Shown in pieces: positions 2,152 through 59,974 of a stretch of 64,000 nt of DNA. The notes beneath the pieces were generated by a model that worked only from the letters and a program-made list of their open reading frames with translations, ran no database searches and had not been told where the DNA came from. The stretch is from IMG/VR virus record IMGVR_UViG_3300031247_000001. One strand, given 5' to 3'. The translations under genes were made by a program, and so were the position numbers. The DNA comes from an uncultured virus (IMG/VR IMGVR_UViG_3300031247_000001). Its lineage: Duplodnaviria > Heunggongvirae > Uroviricota > Caudoviricetes. Position 1 is the first letter of the stretch; each line of letters starts with the position of its first letter.

Positions 2152-4680
2152 TCATTTGAGCTTCTTTTTCAGCTCGTCGAAGAGCGCACGGAGGTATTTC
2201 TTACCGTCACGGCGCAGGAAGGGGGAGTTCGGGTCGCCGGAGCGCTGGATCGCCAGCACGACTCGCTCGGCGTCGATGGTGCCAACGAGGTTTGCGACCA
2301 CCTCAGGGCCCCATTGCTGCATGATCCCGTCGGCGAGCGCCGGCACCGGTACCTGCCCCTCGTAGGGCGGACGGAGCATGCTCTCGGCCTGCAAGATCTC
2401 TTGGTCTTCCTTGAGCACTGCCGCATCGACGCCCGGCGGGATTGAGGCCGGGGCCGGAGGCGCTGCGGGGGGCGGTGGCGGCGCTGACTGAGCCGGGGGC
2501 GATGTTGGCGGCAGGCTCGGCGCCTGCGCGAGCTGATGCACCTGAGGGGCAGGCTCGTGGTACTGCGGCTCGGGCTGCATGACCGGTCGCGGCGGCTGCT
2601 GCATGGGGGCTGGAGCGGGCGCGGGATGGGCCGGAGTAAACGGCTGCACGTACTGCGGCTGGGGCGCCACCACGAACGGATCCCCTCCGTGATTGATGGG
2701 GGCCGATCCCACTTCCGACATGTGCCGCGGCACGAACCCACCGCCACCATCGATCGCGCGGCGACGGTGCGCCGGCGGAAGCGCGGGGGCACCGAGCCCG
2801 GCACCGGCCTGCTCGATCATGTCCTGCCGGCCCTGCAGGCGCGCGGCCTGCACTTCGGCCGCGCTCCGCTGCTTCACCATGGCGCTAACGCTCTCGATGA
2901 CGCCGGGCAGGTTTTGCAGGAGCCCGCCGCCCATCTTCATGAGCATCTGACCGATCGTCTCGGGTTCGGCGCCTATGGCTTCCGAAGCATCGACCATACC
3001 GAGCGCCACGGCGGTCTCTTTGACCTGCGTGATTCTCCCAACCACGTCCTTATTTTCTTCGGCGTCCTGCTTATAGCGCTCCACGTCGGCCGCCGTGCGC
3101 TTGACTTCGCCGCGCGCCACCGAGAGCTGCATCTCATACGAGGCTTTCAAGGATTCAGTCGCCATCTGGTGCTGAGCCTTGAGCGAGCTCATATCGCGCT
3201 CGTGGTTTCGGATCTCGGCCGCCATCGCAACCTCGTGACTCCGCGCCTCGGCGGCCGTCGTGGTCGCGTGCTGGTGCTGCAGATCGTTCACGCGGCGATC
3301 GGCTTCTTCCTTGGCGCGTTGCACTTCGCGATCGGTGCGGTCCCGCAAATCGCGCTCGAGTTGCGCCGTGCGCGCTTCGGATTCTTTGATGCGCGCATCG
3401 GCGCGCGATTCTGCTTCCTTGACTAGCTTGTCACTGCGATCGCGCTCGTCCTTAACGCGCTGCTCGGCGCGATCATGGTCTTCTTTGCTCTGTCGGCTCA
3501 AGCGATCGATTTCGCGCGCGTGCTCGGCGCGGAGCGCCGTGAGCGCTTCGGCGGACCCTTGATTGTCGCCATGGAGGTTTTTGCTGAGGAGGAGCGCTGT
3601 CTCGAGCTGGTCGCGCTCGGGCTTTTTCGCAGCGAGCTTTTCTTCGTACTCTTTTCGCTGCGCGGCCATGTCCTGCTGATGCTGGCGCTGGAGCTCCAGC
3701 ACCTCGCGCCGAAAATCGGCCTGTGCCTCAGCCTGAGCTTGGCCCATCTCAGCGAGCTGTTTGGCGATCGAATTTTGCTCGCGCTCGCGCTCTTTCCGTT
3801 GCTGCTCTTCGCGGTCGCGCTGAGCCTTCTCTTTGTTCTCCTGGCGCTCTTCGCGTGTGAGCTGCGCCTCGGTCTCGATCTTGGCGACGCTGGCATCGGC
3901 CATGGATGCGGGCCCGCGGCGACCTCCGGTGATGTATCCTTGCGTGGACTGGGTCATGTCGGCCTCGTCATCGTACACTTCACCTTCAGAACTTGGAATA
4001 CCTGGAAACGTAACCATGAGCGGCTCGGTGAGGGCCTTCGGCCGCACGCGGCCGTCCGCATCCATGACCCCGCCGCGCGGGGGAGGCCCATACACGATGA
4101 GCTTGTAGGTGCCGCCGCCATAGATTTGCTGCCAGTCCGCAAAAGACAGCGGACCCGTGATCGGGCGCATGACGCCGGCCACCTTGCGGCCGCTGAAGAG
4201 CTTCGGATCTTTGCGCTCGACGTAAATATACTGATTGACCCCATCGAGTCCCGGAAACCGGCTAAACAGATCGACCAGCGTCTGGGGCGGGGAAGCAGCG
4301 GACACGAAGTCCGGCGGCGCATCTTCGGTCGCGATGACCGGACTCACGGTCATGCCGACGCGCTTCTGCACGTCGGGCTCGGGGTGGGGCACCGCGCCGT
4401 CTCCCTCCGCGAAGAGTTCGATGCGACCGGCGAGATCTTGCGGCGACGGCAGCGCCGTGCCCTCCGCCTCCGCCATCGCCTGCATAAACTCCGGGTGCTG
4501 CTCGGCGACTTCGACGACCTCGCGCGACAGGTGCTTCTTCGCGACATCGTCTATCGAACGCGGATCCTCCCTCGCCACCCGCTCCACGCGCACGAGGCGC
4601 TCCCCTCCCACCTCGATCGTATCGGATGGGTCAGGCACAAGCCGGCGCTTGGAGTGGGGGGCGGGGGAAGGGGTCGACAT
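2152..4680 (-). CDS. Large coiled-coil protein with Pro/Gln-rich C-terminal linker (842 aa)
   Basis: Long E/Q/R/K heptad-like region followed by a Pro-rich segment; natural composition and an overlapped start. Confidence 0.75.
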   Translation of the reverse strand: MSTPSPAPHSKRRLVPDPSDTIEVGGERLVRVERVAREDPRSIDDVAKKHLSREVVEVAEQHPEFMQAMAEAEGTALPSPQDLAGRIELFAEGDGAVPHPEPDVQKRVGMTVSPVIATEDAPPDFVSAASPPQTLVDLFSRFPGLDGVNQYIYVERKDPKLFSGRKVAGVMRPITGPLSFADWQQIYGGGTYKLIVYGPPPRGGVMDADGRVRPKALTEPLMVTFPGIPSSEGEVYDDEADMTQSTQGYITGGRRGPASMADASVAKIETEAQLTREERQENKEKAQRDREEQQRKEREREQNSIAKQLAEMGQAQAEAQADFRREVLELQRQHQQDMAAQRKEYEEKLAAKKPERDQLETALLLSKNLHGDNQGSAEALTALRAEHAREIDRLSRQSKEDHDRAEQRVKDERDRSDKLVKEAESRADARIKESEARTAQLERDLRDRTDREVQRAKEEADRRVNDLQHQHATTTAAEARSHEVAMAAEIRNHERDMSSLKAQHQMATESLKASYEMQLSVARGEVKRTAADVERYKQDAEENKDVVGRITQVKETAVALGMVDASEAIGAEPETIGQMLMKMGGGLLQNLPGVIESVSAMVKQRSAAEVQAARLQGRQDMIEQAGAGLGAPALPPAHRRRAIDGGGGFVPRHMSEVGSAPINHGGDPFVVAPQPQYVQPFTPAHPAPAPAPMQQPPRPVMQPEPQYHEPAPQVHQLAQAPSLPPTSPPAQSAPPPPPAAPPAPASIPPGVDAAVLKEDQEILQAESMLRPPYEGQVPVPALADGIMQQWGPEVVANLVGTIDAERVVLAIQRSGDPNSPFLRRDGKKYLRALFDELKKKLK

Positions 4681-9579: not shown

Positions 9580-10007
9580 GACTGCACTCGGAGCCCGATC
9601 ACTCGGGGCACGGGAAAGGCGTCGCCTGCTGCTCCAGCGCCCACGAGCCCAACTCCAGCAGGGGTCACGCCTTGGGCTTTCAGGAAGTCTGTCAGCGCCA
9701 GGAAGGCCGTCTTGAAGTCCGCGAAGGCCGCGTCGTACTGGCCTTGGTCGATCTGCTTCAGATCGCTCACTGCGCGCTCGCCGTTTACTAGGTACACGTT
9801 TGCGGTCGTCAGCAGCCGGGAGTACTCGGCGCGCACTTCGGGCGTGACGGGGTGCGTCGCCTGGTAGGCGCTGAAGACCTCGTCGATGCCGCTCAGCACG
9901 AGCGAGGTGTCGGTCAGCGCCGACTGGATGGCGGGGAGCGCATTGGCGAGGGCGGTGCAGCCAGTGAGGGAGGCCAGAGCGAGGAGGAGGACGAGGAATC
10001 TTTTCAT
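9576..10007 (-). CDS. Lipoprotein
   Basis: MKRFLVLLLALASLTGC lipobox. Confidence 0.75.
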   Translation of the reverse strand: MKRFLVLLLALASLTGCTALANALPAIQSALTDTSLVLSGIDEVFSAYQATHPVTPEVRAEYSRLLTTANVYLVNGERAVSDLKQIDQGQYDAAFADFKTAFLALTDFLKAQGVTPAGVGLVGAGAAGDAFPVPRVIGLRVQS

Positions 10008-10016
10008 GGTGAGAAG

Positions 10017-10052
10017 ATCCTAAGCTGCCTCCCATGATGCCCGCAAGTTTTT
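10017..10052 (-). promoter_or_regulatory. Conserved promoter AAAAAC-TTGCGG-N18-TAGGAT
   Basis: Recurrent motif upstream of the lipoprotein/peptidase operon. Confidence 0.6.
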
Positions 10053-18228: not shown

Positions 18229-18970
18229 CGCGGGGTAACCCTTCTGAGTGTTCGTACGGTTGTGACCCTTCTGACCCTTCCTCAACCCTACCAGAACCCT
18301 TCCCCATACCCTCTCCTAAGCCTTGGGGGAAGCGCGAGTCAGATTCTGAGTCTGATACAGATTCTAAATCTGATACCGTTTCTCTCTCGGCTCCCCCAGC
18401 AACCAACCAACTGTTGGTTTGTTTCTGAGAGGGAGGATTGGGGGAATGGTTACGGGAAGGGTTCTGGGAATGCTTCCCACCTCGAGCAGACTCACCCACC
18501 CAACTCCGGTCGAACGGGTAAGTGCTCGGATCGCCTTGCCGAATGCCCGAGAAGTAAGCGTGAAACGCCTTTTTTCCGCTTTCGCTGCGGTCAGCGAGCC
18601 GCTCCAGCGATTCCAAATGGTCGAATCTAAGCTGAATATCCGGCAAAGCGGCCCATGCTCGCCGCCAGCCGATGACCTGGTTGCCGTTGGGGGGCAGGTG
18701 GTGCTTCCAGCACTTGGGTAGCCGGAGCACGTGTGCCTCGTCGTCGAATTGGGCCATTCCCCTGGCGAGGATGAGTTTAAACGCGCTTTCGACCTCTTCG
18801 GGTCCATGCGGCCTCATCGGCTTGTAGAAAGCGCCAGGGAAGGCCCGGTAGAGCCCGGGGAGGGTCGAGAGCTGCGGCCCGGTAATCATGCACGCAAACA
18901 GGAGCTTACCGACGCCTCCGAGCTCGACGACGCCTCGGTCGTCCCAGAATTGCGGTGCGATGAAGTGCAC
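18002..18970 (-). CDS. Putative phage replication initiator
   Basis: FWDD..V.EL...KLLF..ITGP..GLY N-terminus, a low-complexity ESVSDSESD linker, and a position upstream of the loader and helicase. Confidence 0.55.
   Translation of the reverse strand: MHFIAPQFWDDRGVVELGGVGKLLFACMITGPQLSTLPGLYRAFPGAFYKPMRPHGPEEVESAFKLILARGMAQFDDEAHVLRLPKCWKHHLPPNGNQVIGWRRAWAALPDIQLRFDHLESLERLADRSESGKKAFHAYFSGIRQGDPSTYPFDRSWVGESARGGKHSQNPSRNHSPNPPSQKQTNSWLVAGGAERETVSDLESVSDSESDSRFPQGLGEGMGKGSGRVEEGSEGSQPYEHSEGLPRDERRPGGQRVNGSRPNGGGRSAPPTAGGHSVTAANGTAGGQGVVPGGSPQGRGAEPVDKPGMPRRKIIVGGFEVD
18236..18470. repeat. Iteron-like ACCCTTC repeats plus a 14-bp inverted repeat (putative replication origin)
   Basis: Several ACCCT(TC) copies at 18238-18312; CCAGAACCCTTCCC (18291-18304) and GGGAAGGGTTCTGG (18454-18467) flank an AT-richer core. 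Confidence 0.5.
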
Positions 18971-24180: not shown

Positions 24181-24739
24181 GGAGTCCTTGATCCTTTGCT
24201 TCTTCGAAGCGATGGGCGAGGGTCTCGAGGCAGCTAGCGAGATCGAGGATTCGGCGCCCGGCGGCTTGGTTGAACTGGCCCTCGATGGTTATGAGGTGCG
24301 AGGCCGCCTCGCGGAGCGCGACCTCGACCGAGATGCCTTCCTCGGCTCCCTCGGCGGGCTCGATGTCGAGGAGGAGTTCTTCGAGCGCGGCGCGCCGATC
24401 CTCGGAAATCCGATCCTCGTCGGTCGGTGGAGCTAGGAGCGGATCCGGCACAGCGGATGCGGGGGCGAGTATCTCTCGTCTGGCAAGCATCGCGTCGGCG
24501 ATATGATAGGCGGCGACCGCGAGGTCATCCGGCGAGCTGCTGCCTATGTTCCTGTCCGCGACATCGAGCGCCGCCATCGCGCACTTGTCCCTCAGGGCTT
24601 CCCAAGCGGCGCTCTCGCTGACGCGCAGCTGGTGGATGTACTGCTCGAGATCTTGCTTCGACGAGAACGAGCAGGTGACGCACCTGTAGAGCTCGGGGGT
24701 CATGACCTCCCCGCAGCCGGGGCACTTCTGCCAACTCAT
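24173..24739 (-). CDS. Phage hypothetical protein
   Basis: LRDKCAMAAL...AYHIADAMLARR, a common phage motif. Confidence 0.65.
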   Translation of the reverse strand: MSWQKCPGCGEVMTPELYRCVTCSFSSKQDLEQYIHQLRVSESAAWEALRDKCAMAALDVADRNIGSSSPDDLAVAAYHIADAMLARREILAPASAVPDPLLAPPTDEDRISEDRRAALEELLLDIEPAEGAEEGISVEVALREAASHLITIEGQFNQAAGRRILDLASCLETLAHRFEEAKDQGLHD

Positions 24740-25902
24740 GGTTTGCTACCCTTCGCCGGGGGAGCCGCGATCTCGTCGATGAGCAGCACCATCGCGAGCA
24801 GCGTCTCGTTTCGAAGGAAGCACGACGGCCGGTCGTTGACGATGTCGAAATAAAAATCGATCTCCGTCGGCACGAACGACTTCAGCGCCGTGGCCATGTA
24901 GTTCGCGTCGAAATGGATCTGAAAGCTCCTCGGATCGGCGTCTTCCACCCCGATCTCGTCCTCGCCTTGCCCCTTTTCGCTCTTGCGAGTTGCCATCCGC
25001 ACGATCCCGTCCGCGTACGTGAGATCGATCTGCACGAACTTGTCCTTCCCCTCGACGAAGTCGCTCCCAGCGCTCACGGCGCGCACGCTCTCGAGCAGGG
25101 CCTCGCTCGACACGCGGAAGCGCCGCTTCTGTGGCACGCAGCCGACGAGCAGCGGCACGACCTGCACCGGGAACGGCCGATGGAGCGGGAGCGCGCGAAT
25201 GCTGATCCCAGGCGCCCGAGCGAAGAGGTGAGTATTGTCCTGGGCGAGCTCGATGATCTGGTCCTTCGGGACAGTCTTCAGCGCATCGAGCAGGTTTTTC
25301 GGCAAGAGGTAATTCTGATTCGACTGCCTCGCCTCCGAGAACCAGCCCTTCGCCAGCGCGAACGAATGCCCCGTCACCGCCGCGAGCTCGAAGAACTTGT
25401 CCTCCTTCGGCATGAGGAGCGCCCCGCTCGGTGTCTCTTCCAGCTTGGAGTCGATCGCAAACGAGACCTCGCTGGCGGCCTGGAGCAAGATCTTGGCCTC
25501 GACCGAGTACCAGGTCTCGGGCTCTACCGCGCTCGTGACCTTCGGGAAGTCGACGGGATCGAGCGCGGTCATCGAGAATTTGCGCTTGCTCGCACTCGAC
25601 CGCACGGTCGCCTTGAACTTCCCATCCACCGAGATCTCCACATAGCCCTCGGGGAGCTCATTGACGATGGCCGCTAGGCGGTGGTGGTTGAGGGCGCAGG
25701 CGCCAGGAGCCTTCACTTCTCCCTTCGCTTGGATGGTGATGTCGAGTTGCCCATCGGTCGTGGCGCACGTGATGGCGCTCGAGGCGTCGGTCGCAGAGAA
25801 GAGCACGCACTGGCGCACGGACACCATGTCGCCCGAGTTGATGGCGGCGCCAGAGCGCTTGAGGATGGAGAGGAGATCTTGACGGTTGATGACGATTTGC
25901 AT
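24736..25902 (-). CDS. dnaN: DNA polymerase III beta sliding clamp
   Basis: 388 aa; ATTDGQLDI, IVNELPEG, LDPVDFP and FDANYMATAL correspond to DnaN motifs. Confidence 0.85.
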   Translation of the reverse strand: MQIVINRQDLLSILKRSGAAINSGDMVSVRQCVLFSATDASSAITCATTDGQLDITIQAKGEVKAPGACALNHHRLAAIVNELPEGYVEISVDGKFKATVRSSASKRKFSMTALDPVDFPKVTSAVEPETWYSVEAKILLQAASEVSFAIDSKLEETPSGALLMPKEDKFFELAAVTGHSFALAKGWFSEARQSNQNYLLPKNLLDALKTVPKDQIIELAQDNTHLFARAPGISIRALPLHRPFPVQVVPLLVGCVPQKRRFRVSSEALLESVRAVSAGSDFVEGKDKFVQIDLTYADGIVRMATRKSEKGQGEDEIGVEDADPRSFQIHFDANYMATALKSFVPTEIDFYFDIVNDRPSCFLRNETLLAMVLLIDEIAAPPAKGSKP

Positions 25903-25909
25903 GGGCTCC

Positions 25910-26449
25910 CTACTGAGGTGACGGTGCGGGCGCGCCGAGCTCGGCGCGCTCGATGAGTCGCAAAGCGGTGCGAGTGTCCGGTGGATGGACGTAGACGATC
26001 GCGTCGCCGCCGGTATTCAAGTAGCTGACGAGCGGATCGAGCCCGAAGTATTTCACCTCGGCGAAGCGCTGGAACTCACCCATGAGGCGCTTCTTCTCGG
26101 CATGGCGCGCTCGGTACTTCACCGAGCACGTCGCCGAGCAGAATAGGTTGTCGTGCTCGTCTCGGACAAACCCCTCGTACCCGAGCCCGGTGTGCTTGTA
26201 GCACTCGGAGCATTCGAAGTACCAGCCGTCCTCGAGCATCCAGTCGAGGAGGTTCCCGGTGAAGCCGTCGAGCTGGGGGTACCGCTCGCATTCGACCTCG
26301 TCGAATTGCAAGTCCAGCGCTTCTGCCCCGAGGCGCCGAGCTTGGAGGCCATGATCGGACCAGACGATGTGACAGCGCTCGTCGTCGGTGATCTTCCAGG
26401 CCTTCGTCGCGAGCGGGTGCGCGTACGTCGACATATCCATCAAGGTCAT
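25910..26449 (-). CDS. Zn-finger hypothetical protein
   Basis: GWYFECSEC and FCSATC. Confidence 0.6.
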   Translation of the reverse strand: MTLMDMSTYAHPLATKAWKITDDERCHIVWSDHGLQARRLGAEALDLQFDEVECERYPQLDGFTGNLLDWMLEDGWYFECSECYKHTGLGYEGFVRDEHDNLFCSATCSVKYRARHAEKKRLMGEFQRFAEVKYFGLDPLVSYLNTGGDAIVYVHPPDTRTALRLIERAELGAPAPSPQ

Positions 26450-28161: not shown

Positions 28162-28494
28162 TCAGTCCTCCTGGGTGGAAGCGATGTAGCCGGGGCCGAG
28201 AAGATCGAGCAGCTTGCGCGCAGGAAGGCGCCTGAGCGAGGCGTTGCCGGCTTCGATGGTCTCAAGAGATGCGACCGTATAATCCCCCTCGAACAAGATC
28301 TCGATGACCTCGTCGTCGGGCAAGACCACGAAGTCATCGGGCATCGCGCCGTCTGCATCGAAGTAGTGTCCCCACTCCGCTGCGGCGTCCACCGCGCTCG
28401 TGGCGGCGACGTAGTCACCGTACCCAAAGTACAAGAACAGCTGATGCCGCGGTGTGCCCTGCGGTTGCTTAAAACCAGGCGGTCGTTCGGTCAT
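28162..28494 (-). CDS. Hypothetical protein (MTERPPGFKQ...); its start region resembles a mini-array spacer
   Basis: ATGA overlap with the upstream stop; spacer similarity at 28465-28499. Confidence 0.65.
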   Translation of the reverse strand: MTERPPGFKQPQGTPRHQLFLYFGYGDYVAATSAVDAAAEWGHYFDADGAMPDDFVVLPDDEVIEILFEGDYTVASLETIEAGNASLRRLPARKLLDLLGPGYIASTQED

Positions 28495-28760
28495 GACTTT
28501 GCTTTTGGAAAAGGTTGCAGGGTGTCGGGGTCGATATTGGCCTCGCGACACTCGCGCTGGTAGTTACGCACCTGCACGGCGTCATCTACCCGTTGGCACG
28601 CCTTGCAAGTCGCTTCGTCCACGAGTTGGTTCGGGCTGATGATAGGGAGCTCATGCACGCGCCAGTACCTCACGCCGCGCACTGAGTATTGCTTGAGCGA
28701 CTTGCCGCAGTAGGTGAGCTTGCGGCCCGGGTCGTAGAGGTGGGTGACTTCCCTTGGCAT
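28491..28760 (-). CDS. Small Zn-finger protein, first gene of the leftward block
   Basis: H..YCG..TCKAC. Confidence 0.55.
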   Translation of the reverse strand: MPREVTHLYDPGRKLTYCGKSLKQYSVRGVRYWRVHELPIISPNQLVDEATCKACQRVDDAVQVRNYQRECREANIDPDTLQPFPKAKS

Positions 28761-28869
28761 CGGTAGGTGGTACGCGCGGCCGCGCTAGATCTTCCCTGGA
28801 GACGGAGCGGTGAGATAGTTCGTTGACAGTTCTGAGATAGCAGTGCTAGCTTCCGCCGTCGAGACAGAA

Positions 28870-29313
28870 ATGAGTGCCCCCGATCCGCTCCCGCATTCTC
28901 TCCCGAAGGGCATGACTGCCCGGGGGAAGACGTGGCAGCTAGAGTCGCTCGCAGCGCGGCACTCATCGAGCGAGGAATACTACGGCCGATGGGTGGCCAA
29001 TTGGTCGGCTGGGGAGAAGTTTCCTTGCGTGGCGTCTATGCATGCAAGCGATATTGATTGGCCCGGGGAAGATCTCGCCGCGGCCGCCGTAGCACCAAGC
29101 ATGGAAGAATCACTCGAATCACTGCGGGTAGCCATCGCAGGGCTCAAGGGCTGGCCGCTCGACAAGCGGGAGACGCTCGTGGCGTTCAATATGATGGGGC
29201 TCACGAGCCGGCTGCAGCCGCTGCAGGTCGAGAGCTCCGTGCATCAGCAGATGGTCGTGGCGCTGGCGGTGAAGCTCGCGGACTTGGCGATCTTGGAGCT
29301 CGGTAAACCGTGA
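28870..29313 (+). CDS. Hypothetical protein, first gene of the rightward block
   Basis: Downstream of a TTGACA...TAGCTT promoter-like sequence at about 28823-28851. Confidence 0.5.
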   Translation: MSAPDPLPHSLPKGMTARGKTWQLESLAARHSSSEEYYGRWVANWSAGEKFPCVASMHASDIDWPGEDLAAAAVAPSMEESLESLRVAIAGLKGWPLDKRETLVAFNMMGLTSRLQPLQVESSVHQQMVVALAVKLADLAILELGKP

Positions 29314-29549
29314 CGGTCGAGATCCGTTTCAAGTGCCCGACGTGCGGCGCCGAGCACACTCGCGGCTTCGTGGACGGCGTTGACACCTTCCGGTGTCTCA
29401 AGTGCGGCTACCAGGGCCACGGCTTTCATCCGGACCCCGAGATCGACAAGGCGGTCTTCGCTGAGCACCAGCTGAACAACGCCATCAACCGAGCGCTCGG
29501 GGTGACCGAGGTGCCGCTCGGCATCGACCCCATGGACATCGCATCGTGA
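29310..29549 (+). CDS. Zn-ribbon protein
   Basis: CPTC..CLKC. Confidence 0.55.
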   Translation: MTVEIRFKCPTCGAEHTRGFVDGVDTFRCLKCGYQGHGFHPDPEIDKAVFAEHQLNNAINRALGVTEVPLGIDPMDIAS

Positions 29550-34208: not shown

Positions 34209-35048
34209 ATGGCTGAAGTTGTATTGATGGACGGGCAGTGGACGATGTGCCAGTTCCTGCGGCCGTTCGAGAATTTCGAGCGCGTCTATCAAGGCCAATC
34301 GGGAACGCTTCCGATCGCCTTCCCGGGCGACCTCGATCAGTTCGCGGTCGACGGCACGCCTGGGTACGACCCGAACCTCATCGCGGGCATCACGGTCCCC
34401 TACGGCTCTCGCGTGACGATTTGGATCCCGCAGACCATCGCCGACTACACCGTCAACGCGCTCTATCAGTACCAGATCCTCTGGCGCATGCGGAACGTGC
34501 GGGACTATCGCGAGGGGCAGACCAAGGGCGCGGTCTCCGCTTTGCAGAACTACACGGGCTACCACCTGACCACGAGCGGCTTTGGTCAACCCGAAGTGGC
34601 CAGCGCCCCCGTCACTTCCTCGAACGCTCGCTACTTCCTGCCGGGCGCGACGCGCACGGTGGCCTTCGAGCAGAGTGAGCCCGCGCTCGGCGATCCCGGG
34701 GTCATTCATCTCACCGGCGAACGCCTGCAGCCCACGATCAATCCGGTCTGGGTGCAGCCGCTCACTCCCAAGGGTAACCCCGCCGTCTGGCAGCAGGGCA
34801 CTTATGTGGGCTCCTCTCACGCGAACAACGGAGGCCCCTCGTGGCTCACGTTTACGTGCGACGCCGATGGCGACGAGATGAGCATCTTGGCCTACAAGAT
34901 CCCGCCCGGTGAAGGCCCCTACCCCGCCTGGGACTTCACGACATCCGATCCCGGAGATCTGAGCTTCTCCAACACCTTCGGCAACAGCAATGGCCAAAAC
35001 CGCGGCACCCCCTTCACTTCGATCTTGGTGACCACCGGCACTTCGTAG
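34209..35048 (+). CDS. Putative beta-rich virion structural protein
   Basis: AAGGA RBS; T/G/P/aromatic-rich; no recognisable family. Confidence 0.6.
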   Translation: MAEVVLMDGQWTMCQFLRPFENFERVYQGQSGTLPIAFPGDLDQFAVDGTPGYDPNLIAGITVPYGSRVTIWIPQTIADYTVNALYQYQILWRMRNVRDYREGQTKGAVSALQNYTGYHLTTSGFGQPEVASAPVTSSNARYFLPGATRTVAFEQSEPALGDPGVIHLTGERLQPTINPVWVQPLTPKGNPAVWQQGTYVGSSHANNGGPSWLTFTCDADGDEMSILAYKIPPGEGPYPAWDFTTSDPGDLSFSNTFGNSNGQNRGTPFTSILVTTGTS

Positions 35049-35150
35049 TGGCAGCTCGGCGCCGACGGAAGCCGAGACTTTGCCGTCCAGAGCGCGGGCC
35101 GTGATCGATGGCACATGCAAAGGGAGCTCGGCCCCTACGGAAGCTGGGAC
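35043..35150. CRISPR. CRISPR-like mini-array: 2 repeats and one 36-nt spacer
   Basis: Repeats at 35043-35078 (left end degenerate) and 35115-35150 match the consensus GTGCAAAGGGAGCTCGGCCCCTACGGAAGCCGAGAC; spacer 35079-35114. Confidence 0.75.
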
Positions 35151-35171: not shown

Positions 35172-35978
35172 ATGCTCCTCGATCCTTACCCCGGGCCTCG
35201 CGCTCCACAGATCAACACACTCTGGGTCGTGGTGCCGTTTTCTCGCCCGCACTACTTCGACAATGTGTGGCGAAACTTCGAGCGCCAACGCTTTCCAGGT
35301 AAGCGCCTCTTGATTGCTGCCAACGGCCTTGGGAGCGGCGCAGAGTCGATGTGGCGAGATCTCGGCGCCGACTTCATCGCCACCCGCGATCACCAATCCA
35401 CCGCCAAGAACGAAGCCCTCGCGTTCATTCGGAAGCACGGCGGCGGCTGCTTCTCGATCATGGACGACGACGACTGGTACGGCCCCGGCTACCTCGACGA
35501 GGTCGCGGGCTATGCCAAAGACTACGAGGCGCTCGGCAAGCAATGGCACTTCGTGTCGCTCGGTGAGGGGGATCCGGGTGAGGTGACGTTCGTGTGCGCC
35601 AATCGCCGCTACGCTAACCTCGATCCCGCCTCGTGGTTTACCGGCGGCACGATCAGCGGCTGGGCGGAGACGGCCAAGGACTTCCCCGTCGTCGCCGAGG
35701 GCGAAGACATTCAGTGGTGCCACGCGATGAAGCGCCAGGGCGCTCGCCTGCGCGGGCTGTCGATCTACCACTACCTCTACCGGCGCTCGTATGGAGGTGC
35801 CAAGCACGCGTGGCGCATCACCCGACAAGCATTTGAGCGAGCGCTCCGGGTCGGAGACGCGCTCGAGTTCCCGCTGACGGGGATGGGTCAGATCGATCTC
35901 GACATCGTGACGGGTGAAAAAAATCCGACCGAGTGTCGCCTGATCGGACAGCAGAAGTTCGTGGCGGTTCCGGCGTAA
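35172..35978 (+). CDS. Glycosyltransferase family 2-like (GT-A) protein
   Basis: VVVPFSRP, AKNEAL, IMDDDDWYGPGYL and GED. The ORF-track start at 35115 lies inside the repeat. Confidence 0.75.
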   Translation: MLLDPYPGPRAPQINTLWVVVPFSRPHYFDNVWRNFERQRFPGKRLLIAANGLGSGAESMWRDLGADFIATRDHQSTAKNEALAFIRKHGGGCFSIMDDDDWYGPGYLDEVAGYAKDYEALGKQWHFVSLGEGDPGEVTFVCANRRYANLDPASWFTGGTISGWAETAKDFPVVAEGEDIQWCHAMKRQGARLRGLSIYHYLYRRSYGGAKHAWRITRQAFERALRVGDALEFPLTGMGQIDLDIVTGEKNPTECRLIGQQKFVAVPA

Positions 35979-38525: not shown

Positions 38526-38594
38526 TTCCCGACTGGGTCAGTTTGTCAGGATGACCGAGGCAGGCAGCGCTATGCCCTCGGGATCCCGACAACC

Positions 38595-40787
38595 ATGACG
38601 AATCGAGCCAGACTCGGCGCTTCGGCGCGTGGCACACCCCGAGTCCCCCCTCTTACTGGTGGCGGATCGCAGGGCGCTCAAGGCGCGCCGGGCGCGCAGG
38701 GGTTTCAGGGCGCGCAGGGTTTCCAGGGCTCGGGCGGCGGCGCGCAGGGCGCGCAGGGAGCCCAGGGATTCCAGGGCGCGCAGGGGTTTCAGGGGTCGGG
38801 CGGCGGCGCGCAAGGTGCGCAGGGAGCCCAAGGCTTCCAGGGCGCCCAGGGCTTTCAGGGTAGCGGCTTCCAAGGTGCGCAGGGCGCGCAGGGCTTCCAA
38901 GGTGCGCGAGGAGCTCAGGGTTTCCAGGGCGCTATCGGACCGCAGGGCTTCCAGGGGCCGCAGGGAGCCCAAGGCTTCCAGGGGTCGCAGGGAGCCCAAG
39001 GCTTCCAGGGCGCGCAGGGCTTTCAGGGCGCTATCGGACCGCAGGGCTTCCAGGGTTTCCAGGGGGCGCAGGGCTTTCAGGGCGGCGGCTTCCAGGGCGC
39101 TCAAGGCGCGACGGGAGCGACGGGCACGCAGGGATTTCAAGGCGCAAACGGAGCTCAAGGCGCTCAGGGGTTCCAAGGATCGCAGGGTTTCCAGGGTCAG
39201 GCTGGCCCCGGCGGCGGCGCGCAGGGCGCTCAGGGTTTCCAGGGATCGCAGGGCGCGCAAGGCTTTCAGGGTGGCGGCTTTCAGGGCGCCCAAGGCGCGC
39301 AGGGCTTCCAAGGCGCGACGGGCGCGCAGGGCTTCCAAGGCGGCGGTTTCCAAGGTGCGCAAGGCGCGCAGGGTTTCCAGGGTCAGGCTGGCCCGCAGGG
39401 GTCGACCGGGCCGCAGGGCTTTCAGGGCTTCCAGGGCGCGCAAGGCTTTCAGGGTGGCGGCTTCCAGGGGGCGCAGGGCGCGACCGGCTCCCAAGGCTTT
39501 CAAGGTAGCGGTTTCCAAGGCGCGCAGGGCGCTACCGGGGTGCAAGGCTTTCAAGGCGCCCAGGGTTTTCAGGGTGCGACCGGGCCGCAGGGCTTCCAGG
39601 GATTTCAGGGAGCGCAGGGCTTTCAAGGTGGTGGGTTCCAGGGCGCGCAAGGCGCGACCGGCGTCCAAGGCTTTCAAGGCGCGCAGGGTTTCCAGGGTGC
39701 GACCGGGCCGCAGGGTTTCCAGGGATTTCAGGGAGCGCAGGGCTTTCAAGGTAGCGGTTTCCAAGGCGCGCAGGGCGCGACCGGGGTGCAAGGCTTTCAA
39801 GGCGCGCAGGGTTTCCAGGGTGCGACCGGGCCGCAGGGTTTCCAGGGTGCGCAGGGTTTTCAGGGTGGGGGGTTCCAGGGGGCGCAGGGCTCGACCGGCG
39901 CGCAGGGTTTTCAGGGAGCGCAAGGCTTCCAAGGCGGCGGCTTCCAAGGTGCGCAAGGCGCGACCGGGGTGCAAGGCTTTCAAGGCGCCCAGGGCTTTCA
40001 GGGTGCGACGGGCGCGCAGGGTTTCCAGGGATTCCAGGGCGCGCAAGGCTTTCAAGGCGGCGGCTTCCAGGGCGCGACGGGTACGCAAGGGTTCCAGGGG
40101 GCGCAAGGCTTTCAGGGCGGCGGGTTCCAGGGAGCGCAAGGCGCGACCGGGGTGCAAGGCTTCCAAGGCGCCCAGGGCTTTCAGGGTGCGACCGGGCCGC
40201 AGGGCTTCCAGGGATTCCAGGGGGCGCAGGGGTTTCAGGGCGGCGGCTTCCAGGGCGCTCAAGGCGCGACCGGCGTCCAGGGTTTTCAAGGAGCGCAGGG
40301 TTTTCAAGGAGCCCAGGGATCTCAAGGGTTTCAGGGATCGGGAGGCGGCGCGCAGGGCGCTCAAGGCGCGCAGGGCGCTCAAGGATTTCAGGGGTCGGGC
40401 GGCGGCGCGCAAGGCGCTCAAGGCGCCCAGGGGTTTCAGGGCGCGCAGGGTTTCCAAGGCGCGGGCGCGCAGGGCGCTCAAGGTGCCCAAGGCGGCGGCA
40501 GTGGGACGGGGCTCACCATCGTCGCGCGCGGGACAGTCACCGTCAACGGCTTCGGCGCCGCCTCTCTTGGTCCCTACACGAACGCCGCCGGTCTTGCGGT
40601 GACGCTCTTCCTCACGGTGGTGCCGACAGGCAACGGCGATGACTCGTCCTGGGGCGTGAGCTCGACGGGCGCCGCGATCAGCTGGAAGTTTCACGACTCG
40701 GGTTTCAGCGGCACGCAATACGGATTTACGATCACCAACAACAACGGCACCAACCGCACGATGTTCTACGCGGTTGTTGGGGTGTGA
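38595..40787 (+). CDS. Collagen-like fibre protein (about 610 aa of Gly-X-Gln repeats plus a small C-terminal beta domain)
   Basis: [12 protein letters not shown] triplets with GG interruptions. Confidence 0.9.
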
Positions 40788-40788
40788 T

Positions 40789-41505
40789 TCAGCGCCCGGG
40801 ACCCGACCACACGCGCATCAAAAATTCGTTGTCGTAGATGTTGCCCGGGATGACGCCGGGAATCATCTCGTGCCGCCAGAGCACGTACGGCAAGGAGAGC
40901 TGGTCCTGCACCGACCAGTGCACGCACTCATCGAGCCACGCCTTCTCGAGCTCAGCAATCGGTGGCCAGTGCCAGCGCGCGATGCAGCCGCCGGCATAGA
41001 GACGGTAGCCCTCGAGCGCTTTTGGCATCCCCGCCGATCGGTAGTGCGCCACCTGCTCGATGCAGGGCTCACCCTGGTACTTCGGGAACGTCATCGAGAA
41101 TTCGGCCTCGGCCTCGAGCGAGCGGAGCGGATCTTCTGGGTGCTCGAAGAGCGCAATGGATGCCCTAGGACTCCGAACACCCCGAGTGGTGATGCCAGTC
41201 AGCGCGTGGTGACAGCGCTGCAGCATCAAGTGAGGCTCCTTCACGCGCACGCTCGAGTCGATGTAGATCGACCACTCCCTGTCCGGGAACAAGTGGCACG
41301 CGCTCATCTTGAACCACTTTGCGTCCATGCGCGGCGACCTGAAGACGCTCCGGCGCACGAAGACTCTCCAGTGCGGGAGTTTGTCGACGAGCGAAGTATC
41401 GTCGGTGAAGCAGACGAGATCGGCGACGCCGCCGAGATCCGGGATGTCGACGGGCTTGTCGTGGTCGCCGAAGCACGCGGTGTAGATGATGGGCTTGTCG
41501 GTCAT
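40789..41505 (-). CDS. DUF616 (TOD1/MUCI70-like) glycosyltransferase
   Basis: IYTACFGDHD, CFTD, KWFKMSACHLFP, SIYIDSS, HP..R and DQLSLPYVLW. Confidence 0.8.
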   Translation of the reverse strand: MTDKPIIYTACFGDHDKPVDIPDLGGVADLVCFTDDTSLVDKLPHWRVFVRRSVFRSPRMDAKWFKMSACHLFPDREWSIYIDSSVRVKEPHLMLQRCHHALTGITTRGVRSPRASIALFEHPEDPLRSLEAEAEFSMTFPKYQGEPCIEQVAHYRSAGMPKALEGYRLYAGGCIARWHWPPIAELEKAWLDECVHWSVQDQLSLPYVLWRHEMIPGVIPGNIYDNEFLMRVWSGPGR

Positions 41506-54801: not shown

Positions 54802-55028
54802 GCCGTGGCGTCGGGCTCGGATCTCAATGAGCTATTTGCCCATGAGCTTGGGGCAGATCTCAACGGCGATCCGGAGCTCCGCTACGAGGTCACCGAGACG
54901 CGTGCGACGCTGCGCGAGTGGGTGGCTGAAAAAGTGCGCGAGCAGACCGATAGCGATGAGATGTCGCGCGCGGTGAAGCGATTCATTCGGGCGCGCCTGA
55001 GCGTCTCCAAGGTCATGGAGTTTTTCTG

Positions 55029-55370
55029 ATGCTCGGCGTGGCCACCACGAGCCCAACGCCGATGCCCGCGATCAGCTCGGGCACGCAAGAGCTCATTGCG
55101 TATGGCTTGCTCCTCGGCGGCGCCGTCGTCGTCGGCAAACTCATGATCGATGGGCTCGTGGGCGACATGGACGCCGCGAAGGCAAGGAGGGAGTTCATTG
55201 GGCCGGTGTACGAGCCGCCGAAGCCGCCCAGGGATTTGCACGTGCAGCTGAGTGACGTGGTGAAGTTTCTGGCCATGAGCGCGAGCGTGTACTCGCTCAT
55301 TGCGGAGCTGCCGACGCTCGTGAGCCAATGGGGCTCGGTCGAGGCGCAGATCGAGAATTTGGTGAAGTGA
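55029..55370 (+). CDS. Small membrane protein
   Basis: Hydrophobic helix; TGATG-coupled. Confidence 0.5.
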   Translation: MLGVATTSPTPMPAISSGTQELIAYGLLLGGAVVVGKLMIDGLVGDMDAAKARREFIGPVYEPPKPPRDLHVQLSDVVKFLAMSASVYSLIAELPTLVSQWGSVEAQIENLVK

Positions 55371-58536: not shown

Positions 58537-59295
58537 ATGAAGAGTTTGTTTTTGGTTTGCCTCATCGTCGCCATGACTGCCTGCGGCGCGCCGTTCACGG
58601 CGGAGTCGTTTACCGATAGCGGGAGCGCCGGTGCCATCGGGGCTCCGGCGGCACCGAGCGCAGGCGCGGCCGGCGCCGAGCCGCGCGAGGATGCCGGCGG
58701 AGCGACGAGCATCCCGCTCGAGTCAGCTGGCGCCGCCGGCGCCGCCGGCGCGCCTGACCTAGGCTCCGCCGGCGCGCCGAGCGTCGACCCGCCGCCGCTC
58801 TACACGCCGCCCCCGTGCTCCACCGACCAGAACGTCACCGGCGGCTACGACGGATCGCTCAGCGCCGCCCCTGCCTGCCTCCGCACCAAGGAGGCCCTCA
58901 ACACCGTTGCTTGTGCCAACTGGGACGGGCGATCGATCACCGTCAACGGCGCCGCGGCGACCTGCGGCGTCCCGCTCTCCTTCCCGGAGAGCGTCGATGG
59001 CTTCACGTACATCGATCTCGGCCCGGGGACGAGCTCTGGCGTCGCGCTCCGGTGGTTTTTGACAGCGCCCGCCCCAAACCCCTGCGACGCGCGTTGGTGG
59101 ACCCAGGGCGACCTCTACGCCCCGAACGAAATCATGCTCGATGTCTGCGACGCGCCCGGGAGCGAAAAGAGCTGCGAGCTCGGCAAGACCTACGCCTTCT
59201 CGTGCCTCGACACCCCGACCAGCCGGTGCACCAGCACGGGGCCCGGCGCAAGCGGCTGGACTTCGAGCTGGGCGCTGGTTACCCTCTGCAAGTAA
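58537..59295 (+). CDS. Cys-rich lipoprotein
   Basis: GGAGG RBS; lipobox MTAC; Gly/Ala linker; Cys-rich domains. Confidence 0.75.
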   Translation: MKSLFLVCLIVAMTACGAPFTAESFTDSGSAGAIGAPAAPSAGAAGAEPREDAGGATSIPLESAGAAGAAGAPDLGSAGAPSVDPPPLYTPPPCSTDQNVTGGYDGSLSAAPACLRTKEALNTVACANWDGRSITVNGAAATCGVPLSFPESVDGFTYIDLGPGTSSGVALRWFLTAPAPNPCDARWWTQGDLYAPNEIMLDVCDAPGSEKSCELGKTYAFSCLDTPTSRCTSTGPGASGWTSSWALVTLCK

Positions 59296-59521
59296 AGGCA
59301 GCGCGACGCCTACGGAAGTCGCGACCACGCGGTGCTGGGGCAAAGGGAGCTCGGCCCCTACGGAAGCCGAGACAAGCCATGACCGAGAAACGACCGCCAG
59401 GGTTTAGACAAGTGCAAAGGGAGCTCGGCCCCTACGGAAGCCGAGACAAATCCTGCCGGGCGGCTACCTGGCCTATCTCGACACGGTGCAAAGGGAGCTC
59501 GGCCCCTACGGAAGCCGAGAC
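59290..59521. CRISPR. CRISPR-like mini-array: 4 repeats with spacers of 12, 38 and 38 nt
   Basis: Repeats at 59290-59325 (diverged), 59338-59373, 59412-59447 and 59486-59521; the last two are identical, GTGCAAAGGGAGCTCGGCCCCTACGGAAGCCGAGAC. Confidence 0.88.
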
Positions 59522-59593
59522 CTGCTAGGTTTGCGAGGGGGCTAGCGGCCAGAATTTGACTTCGGATCCGGTACCCGGGTAGCCTCTCGTTCA

Positions 59594-59974
59594 ATGGCCG
59601 TTGCAATTGGATCCCGCGTCGCGCTCAAGACTCTTGGACAAGGTCTGGCCATCGGCCAGGTGACCGCTCAGCCGCCCGTCTTTGGCGTGTCGCAGACGGC
59701 CTCCCCGGGCCCTTGCGTCATCGACTGGGAGAACGGCGCTCAAGCCACGGTGCCGCTCGCGGTGCTGGACGAACTCCTCGGGGCCAACCCGACTACGCTC
59801 GGTCTCATCGGGCAGGTCGTCAACGTCGAGGGGCAGTCGGCGGCGTACAATGCCCTCGTGGTCGATGCCTACAACCGCAACGGCACTCAAGAGCTCGTGC
59901 TCGTCAAGACCCTAAACAACGGGACGTACTTCGAGCTCGACGCCACCACCGTCGTCCCGCAACCGAACCTCTGA
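59594..59974 (+). CDS. Putative virion protein
   Basis: Preceded by TTGACT-N18-TAGCCT (59556-59585); beta-rich. Confidence 0.6.
   Translation: MAVAIGSRVALKTLGQGLAIGQVTAQPPVFGVSQTASPGPCVIDWENGAQATVPLAVLDELLGANPTTLGLIGQVVNVEGQSAAYNALVVDAYNRNGTQELVLVKTLNNGTYFELDATTVVPQPNL

Follow-up and report, generated by a model that had tools for sequence, protein, structure and literature searches.

A phage mini-CRISPR array carries a probable copy of a kin gene junction and may serve a Cas12m-like silencing system

Array B is a short CRISPR array near one end of a 64,000-nucleotide stretch of soil phage DNA (hereafter the window), taken from the IMG/VR record IMGVR_UViG_3300031247_000001 of an uncultured member of the Caudoviricetes. 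Its first spacer, B1, resembles the junction of two small genes in the same window and the orthologous junction in two related phages, G001 and G002. It is well supported by sequence comparison that B1 copies this junction from a member of the phage group closer to the carrier than G001 or G002, and not from the carrier itself. On balance, we judge it probable, though by no means assured, that B1 is a kin-junction guide in a cas-less satellite mini-array that belongs to the phage clade's own Cas12m-like (type V-M) system and silences kin.

Results

Spacer B1 is a diverged copy of a gene junction

The features on which the comparison rests are the following (positions are those of the window; nt, nucleotides; aa, amino acids).

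59338–59521, + strand: mini-array B, three 36-nt repeats and two 38-nt spacers with a 74-nt period
59338–59373, 59412–59447 and 59486–59521, + strand: array B repeats, 36 nt each
59374–59411, + strand: spacer B1, 38 nt, sense-strand copy of a kin version of the 28491–28760/28162–28494 gene junction
59448–59485, + strand: spacer B2, 38 nt, unrelated to B1
28465–28499, − strand: the carrier's own diverged protospacer copy, spanning the ATGA stop/start overlap, with 5 substitutions and a 3-nt deletion relative to B1
28491–28760, − strand: target gene 1 (P0003), Cys-rich small protein with its start placed at the first ATG, first gene of a leftward cluster
28162–28494, − strand: target gene 2 (P0002), 110 aa, belonging to a small family restricted to phages, with MT[ED]..RPPGF at the N-terminus and PGYLASTTED at the C-terminus

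Array B is a true CRISPR array, with regular, near-identical repeats and unique spacers of similar length (0 matches expected from shuffles). The three repeats are identical over 34/34 nt, and the first deviates at its second base. With two spacers in viral DNA, the array has no adjoining cas gene.

Spacer B1 aligned to the minus strand of 28465–28499 with 30 of 35 aligned positions identical, one 3-nt gap and a local score of 36, exactly the alignment given in an earlier reading of the window made from its letters and open reading frames (the sequence-only reading). Read in the ATG frame, B1 encodes MTEKRPPGFRQ against the phage's own MTERPPGFKQ, and the ATGA overlap is kept. To that reading the differences looked like coding divergence, and each part of its list was confirmed: CCA/CCT and GGG/GGT are synonymous, AGA/AAG exchanges R for K, one codon is extra and in frame, and the single change before the ATG (CCA/TCA) affects the final codon of the gene upstream.

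A shuffle test had been proposed as a gauge of significance. None of 1,500 mononucleotide shuffles reached a score of 36 (mean 23.4, standard deviation 2.2, maximum 35; Gumbel fit p ~4e-4). Among real 38-mers of the window, with the repeat-rich 38.4–49.8 kb and the arrays left out, 3 of 1,200 reached that score; without this exclusion 33 of 400 did so, 30 of them from repeated DNA at 38.6–48.4 kb. The other five guide-like stretches of the two window arrays scored 22–28, inside the range of their own shuffles. By score alone, the B1 match is moderately significant, which is suggestive and not decisive. The homology is settled by the context of the match, namely the in-frame stop/start overlap, the family-like peptide and the matches to the orthologous junction in kin.

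The orthologous junction in related phages

An exhaustive search of 1.84 billion representative proteins returned 19 homologues of P0002 at E ≤ 0.001, and a word-indexed profile search returned 15 family members at the same threshold; a first word-indexed protein search had returned nothing other than P0002 itself. The N-termini of the relatives include MTESNRPPGFRKP, MTASNRPPGFKRE, MTESNRPPGFKIL, MIESTRPPGFRKP, MTDSNRPPAFKIP and MTRPPAFKLP, with the carrier's copy aligned as MTE--RPPGFKQ. The N-terminus of the family thus varies in length exactly at the extra codon of B1.

Three IMG/VR contigs encode the P0002 family. In G002 (135 kb), the best match to B1 in the whole genome is the orthologous junction, at 76496–76515. 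The best match in the 20-kb locus of G001 is again the orthologous junction (9987–10020; score 28, whereas 40 shuffles averaged 21.4 ± 1.6 and did not exceed 26). The first 13 nt of B1 are identical to the G002 junction (13/13), showing the AAGCCATGACCGA state and keeping a C where the window carries T. The origin of B1 from a related virus, as put forward by the sequence-only reading, is therefore well supported by the family-fitting peptide, the position of the indel, the 13/13 agreement with G002 and the orthologous matches in kin. The best kin matches lie at the orthologous locus and not elsewhere, and shuffled spacers align worse.

The repeat family is linked to a Cas12m-like effector

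Neither the exact array B repeat nor a degenerate pattern of it matched anything in IMG/VR. An exact 27-mer and a degenerate 26-nt repeat pattern (21 fixed bases) likewise gave 0 matches among 185,579 prokaryote species represented by one genome each, and a borrowed host system is therefore unlikely. A metagenome scan with the repeat found only three lone repeat units (L001–L003). With a covariance model of the repeat at E ≤ 0.1, 27 units were detected in G002 (all but one, a weak unit at 114029, belonging to the 26 of the cas12m locus), 13 in G001 and 28 in L036, a more distant contig; the window has only six, all in arrays A and B (described below) when the diverged unit B0 upstream of array B is included. 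In all three IMG/VR contigs (G001, G002 and L036), the main array directly follows a cas12m-like gene of 477–514 aa on the same strand.

The G002 effector matched Cas12f (2.4e-49) and Cas12u1 (5.2e-48) in PADLOC, and the PDB entry 23vw_A, 'CRISPR-associated DNA-binding protein Cas12m', at E 3.8e-36. The first RuvC Asp is replaced by Asn in all five phage proteins read (AxNFGWRR vs AIDLGWR in the solved protein). Cas1 (PF01867) gave 0 matches in G001–G003, including the complete G002, in a search that covered neither Cas2 nor Cas4 and whose control was positive in 7 of 14 genomes. In the main array of G002, which has two repeat subfamilies, the spacers at 25793–25828 and 26304–26339 are near-duplicates (34/36). 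Segmental duplication therefore accounts for part of the array's growth, as would suit a system that lacks Cas1.

Among the 86 homologues of the G002 effector is P0043 (517 aa, 70% identical), found on a single 126,165-bp contig. The only contig with P0002 is likewise 126,165 bp long, and the window phage therefore very probably encodes its own Cas12m, P0043, outside the window.

Type V-M was formerly named V-U1, and its Cas12m is reportedly also the subject of Wu et al. 2022. Cas12m works with one short CRISPR RNA (crRNA), needs no trans-activating CRISPR RNA and processes its own precursor crRNA; it binds DNA in dependence on a protospacer-adjacent motif (PAM) without cutting, and it protects E. 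coli from phages and plasmids (PMC11013384). The effector class of the present repeat family is that of a DNA-binding, non-cutting Cas12m, which for the phage proteins is a prediction from homology and the RuvC Asn. The predicted action is therefore silencing and not cleavage; for the same reason the alternative given in the sequence-only reading, repression of the phage's own gene, keeps some weight, although it is less likely.

The guide RNA is read on the plus strand

The repeats share a 6-bp hairpin that is paired in 97.8% of cells in an alignment of 44 repeats (30 distinct). Four of the six pairs change on both sides, a level of covariation reached by 0 of 500 shuffles, and sliding the pairing partner by 1–3 columns left at most 49% of cells paired. 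Sixteen hairpin cells are G-U and would read A-C on the other strand; such cells pair only on the modelled strand, which makes + the strand of the RNA in the window. Two nt separate the end of the hairpin from each spacer, which places it 5' of the guide in the type V arrangement, and the repeats are co-oriented with cas12m in G001, G002 and L036. As written, B1 is the sense sequence of P0002 and would therefore pair with the template strand of the DNA rather than the messenger RNA. The fold of the whole array transcript was no better than that of shuffles (z 0.6), and only the repeat hairpins matter. On the array region, no Rfam family was matched.

Other guides and short-spacer units in the phage group

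The window, G001, G002 and L003 supplied 44 guide-like stretches, which we compared with all four genomes; four of these, B1 among them, are similar to something outside the arrays and the rest match nothing in those genomes. A G001 spacer agrees at 36 of 38 positions with a site in the 5' part of that phage's own cas12m (L018 1850–1887), with TTC as the 5' flank. The two differences are CGT/CGC, which is synonymous, and TTC/CTC, which exchanges F for L. The same spacer matches the cas12m of G002 (28809–28836) at 27 of 28 positions, and is either a guide against the cas12m of rivals or an autoregulator. One G002 spacer matches its own genome at 18417–18450 (30/34), and another gives a partial match of 20/20. 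Among 28 stretches from L036, one matches the window within gene 54960–55370 (21/22 in the core at 55105–55126, 25/36 overall), with a BLAST E of 1.2e-4 before correction for ~70 queries that becomes marginal after multiple testing.

A candidate match of B2 was rejected. This spacer shares 17 of 18 nt, coding for GGYLA, with a small G002 gene (75671–75688) about 0.8 kb from the junction orthologue, and the score equals that of the best shuffle; a GGYLA-type gene is absent from the gap at 29313–29465 of the window.

Some repeat units are followed by short 'spacers' of 12–29 nt, as found in the window (59290–59337), G002 (28975–29122) and G001 (110300–110692); the changes that distinguish their stems are compensatory. 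G002 has three such units just upstream of cas12m, the last of them 29 nt before the ATG. These units may be regulatory or decoy RNAs rather than guides.

Lone repeat units of the same family, 30/33 identical to the window repeat, occur in L003 (9991–10026) and in L001 and L002 (331–363, − strand). In L003, from an 86.6-kb phage-like metagenome contig that has one weak protein match to the window, and in L002, the unit sits in a short gap between two genes that lie on the strand opposite to it. A lone unit of this kind could act as an RNA decoy against Cas12m-carrying phages.

Genomic setting of the two window arrays

At 64% G+C, the window is phage DNA whose products include a DnaB helicase, ThyX, a MazG-like pyrophosphatase, a sliding clamp, a sigma factor and an 1,800-aa collagen-like tail fibre, and no close relative was found among GenBank phages. 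An 842-aa open reading frame (2152–4680) was considered as an effector and rejected, as it is coiled-coil and low-complexity with no Cas or PDB match. The cluster that starts with target gene 1 runs leftward and unbroken from 28760 to 23323, probably as an operon, and includes the sliding clamp gene (24736–26016). The region at 38.5–49.7 kb is rich in internal repeats that involve the tail-fibre gene and a 759-aa minus-strand open reading frame at 38538–40817; 38-mers from 38.6–40.5, 42.6–42.7 and 44.4–48.4 kb have near-copies elsewhere, with scores of up to 71.

The remaining features of the array regions are the following.

58537–59295, + strand: predicted gene for a Cys-rich lipoprotein, directly before array B, with signal peptide MKSLFLVCLIVAMTAC
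59290–59325, + strand: diverged upstream repeat B0, overlapping the stop codon of the lipoprotein gene
59326–59337, + strand: 12-nt mini-spacer after B0
35043–35150, + strand: mini-array A, with a repeat-like unit (35043–35078), the 36-nt spacer A1 (35079–35114) and a repeat (35115–35150)

Positions 1–58.5 kb of the window are collinear with G002 from 110.3 to 42.6 kb, in reverse, and positions 59.5–64 kb match G002 at 0.4–6.5 kb in forward orientation. Array B sits exactly at this break in collinearity (58561–59594), which reflects either an inversion or a genome end placed differently. At the array B site the window and G001 are collinear, and the spacers there differ. The G001 homologue of the lipoprotein (54% identity) likewise precedes repeats, here seven diverse units at 110300–110692. 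The stem of B0 has kept its pairing through two double changes (T-A to G-C and G-C to A-T). Phage lipoproteins are often superinfection-exclusion factors, and the lipoprotein gene and array B may together form a small exclusion island.

Array A lies between a gene ending at 35048 and another that begins at 35172. In its first unit, the 29 nt at the 3' side are identical to the main-array repeat of G002, and the matching site in G001 holds a single repeat unit at 84519–84551. Satellite arrays thus occupy conserved places in these phages and carry different guides.

Searches for a matching target and other points against kin silencing

Several results weigh against a working guide aimed at kin. 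A 26-mer of B1 and a codon-degenerate pattern each gave 0 matches in IMG/VR (as did a 30-mer of B2), and B1, B2 and A1 found nothing below E 0.1 among GenBank phages. In four other runs, contigs across the junction were identical to the window and no variant bearing the protospacer was seen. These runs gave five short contig pieces. Four agree with the window at every letter, and three of these span or abut the junction; the fifth, 34 nt at 28704–28737, differs at 4 letters. IMG/VR, the GenBank phages and the four runs yielded no perfect or near-perfect protospacer, the metagenome and genome collections not having been searched with the spacer. The perfect protospacer in a related virus that the sequence-only reading had named as support did not turn up in these three sources, and no PAM was readable from a protospacer flank. 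The closest sequence found to B1 is the carrier's own copy (30/35), with no better-matching virus. The 5' flanks of the self and kin B1 sites (AGCA, GCC, ACC and AGG) have no motif in common and lend no support to a PAM; the flanks of all imperfect self and kin sites, which add TTC, CTC and CGT, show no common motif either, where a type V-M system would be expected to have a T- or C-rich 5' PAM, and there is no true protospacer among these sites.

Other points concern the system and the statistics. No cas gene was found in the 64-kb window by PADLOC over 65 open reading frames or by tblastn with the relatives' effector, and the phage's own cas12m is deduced only from the equal size of the P0043 and P0002 contigs. 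Promoter and terminator scans detected no promoter-like site near array A or B. Only B1 among the three full-length window spacers shows similarity to kin or self, with B2 and A1 at chance level. The null built from real window sequence gives B1 a p of ~0.0025 on score alone, before correction for the six guides examined.

A model for B1 and its alternatives

If B1 guides the silencing of kin, array B would be transcribed on the + strand, probably together with the flanking genes, and Cas12m would cut the transcript within the repeats to give a crRNA with a 5' repeat hairpin and a 3' 38-nt guide. The guide would pair with the template strand of rival DNA about 270 nt into the leftward cluster, where the gene for the sliding clamp and others for DNA replication lie. 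The bound, non-cutting Cas12m would then keep a rival that shares the cell from being transcribed or replicated, a form of heterotypic superinfection exclusion. The carrier's own copy would escape because it is mismatched at guide position 4, forms a 3-nt bulge after position 13 and has four more mismatches; B1 has at most 9 nt of contiguous pairing on its own junction. Array B would in that case be the 'weapon that spares self' of the sequence-only reading.

B1 could instead be a relic, taken once from kin or from the phage's own ancestor and left in a mini-array that is now unused, so that the similarity records history only. The lack of a cas gene in the window, of a promoter-like site near the arrays and of a matching target in the three sources searched all speak for this, as does the failure of B2 and A1 to match anything; with Cas1 absent from V-M systems and from the complete G002, spacer turnover may moreover be slow (PMC11013384). 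We nevertheless regard a relic as unlikely, given that the three B repeats are identical over 34/34 nt, that diverged units keep their hairpin via changes that are compensatory or give G-U pairs, an argument for selection on the RNA, that the array position is kept in G001 with different spacers and that a cas12m homologue is very probably on the same contig. Somewhat harder to accept is self-regulation, whereby crRNA B1 weakly binds the phage's own junction and lowers expression of the leftward cluster, for example late, when the neighbours of the array are expressed. A non-cutting DNA binder that silences transcription would suit this role, as would a promoter-proximal site in a long gene cluster and a guide that pairs with the template strand. 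The G001 spacer with 36/38 identity to its own cas12m and a TTC flank points the same way, and the units with 12–29-nt spacers upstream of the G002 cas12m and at the array B site in G001 and the window resemble CRISPR repeat-like regulatory RNAs (bioRxiv 10.1101/2023.03.03.530964). A non-cutting effector has no need of partial matching, however, and a regulatory guide should co-evolve with its target, whereas B1 faces its own junction with 5 mismatches (one at guide position 4), a 3-nt bulge and no more than 9 nt of contiguous pairing. The differences are also typical of diverged coding sequences, and the spacer keeps the kin state AAGCCATGACCGA of G002 where the window has changed.

Two further explanations fare worse. 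The phage might borrow a host Cas effector with the same repeat, as the portogloboviruses discussed below do, and the absence of an adjoining cas gene is indeed shared with most viral mini-arrays (PMC11656645, PMC6858448). This is very improbable in view of the 0 matches to the repeat 27-mer and degenerate pattern in 185,579 species genomes, and of the repeat being carried by 3/3 IMG/VR cas12m loci of this phage group. Least credible is that a GC-rich spacer resembles a GC-rich genome by chance. Three of 1,200 real window 38-mers do reach the score of B1, one shuffle came to 35 and six guide-like stretches were examined, but the match lies in frame on a stop/start overlap with a peptide that fits the N-terminus of the family, and chance does not predict that the best matches in two other phages fall on the same junction.

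Discussion

A virus-borne mini-array aimed at kin is a known kind of element (PMC6858448, PMC11656645). The closest published parallels are SPV1 and SPV2, Saccharolobus portogloboviruses with virus-borne mini-CRISPR arrays (Medvedeva et al. 2019, PMC6858448). As in array B, these have 1–2 spacers in an intergenic position with no adjacent cas genes, and the same position is used in relatives with different spacers. The SPV spacers are aimed at close relatives, the orthologous loci of the carrier bearing point mutations or deletions that prevent self-targeting (PMC6858448), as is proposed for B1. The SPV repeats are those of the host, whose Cas proteins are used, whereas the present repeat is tied to a phage-encoded Cas12m-like gene. 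The SPV spacers also have 100% protospacers in the partner virus, in contrast to B1, for which none was found, and the predicted action here is binding and not cleavage.

The effector itself is related to bacterial and plasmid-borne Cas12m of type V-M (formerly V-U1) (Bigelyte et al. 2024, PMC11013384; Omura et al. 2023, PMC10442227). Shared features are a homologous effector, no Cas1, a same-strand array just after the gene, a hairpin 5' of the guide and a non-canonical RuvC. The phage proteins differ in being shorter (477–520 aa vs 577–614 aa in PDB chains) and in reading N-E-D, with Asn for the first RuvC Asp. They are encoded by phages of 110–136 kb that also carry scattered mini-arrays and single repeats, and many of the repeats differ within an array. 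A 2024 review places V-M systems in plasmids and 'some prophages' (PMC11656645), and MvCas12m of myxophage MV-1 is called the 'first phage Cas12m' by its authors in a September 2026 preprint (bioRxiv 10.64898/2026.09.14.751636), the only paper on a phage-encoded Cas12m locus that our literature search brought up. MvCas12m resembles the present systems in that a Cas12m lies beside a CRISPR array in a phage genome without adaptation genes. It differs by its 610 aa, its intact D-E-D triad and its eight spacers, for which no protospacer was found; the clade described here has a shorter form of the protein, with guides that show recognizable similarity to kin or self. In a literature search that left supplements outside, we found no paper reporting targets of a phage Cas12m. 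The lone units in the phage-like contigs L001–L003 and at 84519–84551 of G001 are similar to the RNA anti-CRISPRs and solitary viral repeats of the review (PMC11656645), in contrast to array B, which is a full repeat–spacer–repeat array with 38-nt spacers.

New in this phage group is the combination of a phage-encoded type V-M effector, with predicted silencing activity, and mini-arrays, lone repeats and short-spacer units scattered through the genomes of the clade. Earlier viral mini-arrays directed against kin have been described as borrowing the cutting machinery of the host, whereas the guide studied here belongs to a predicted silencing system carried by phages. Two putative targets can be read, one at the beginning of the leftward cluster of a rival, with its sliding clamp gene, and the other in a rival's cas12m gene.

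A wider and quite speculative possibility, which we consider unlikely as it stands, is that in this clade of 110–136-kb soil phages Cas12m, the main array and the scattered mini-arrays and single repeats form a programmable repressor network. Some guides would silence the early genes and cas12m of kin, and others, such as the 12–29-nt guides and the 36/38 spacer of G001, may serve as decoys or adjust the activity of the phage's own genes. Such a network, if true, would be a virus-encoded form of CRISPR interference acting both outward and inward. With readable targets at hand, the purpose of phage Cas12m systems becomes a testable question, and the clade offers very compact (477–520 aa) natural effectors, with predicted DNA binding and known guides.

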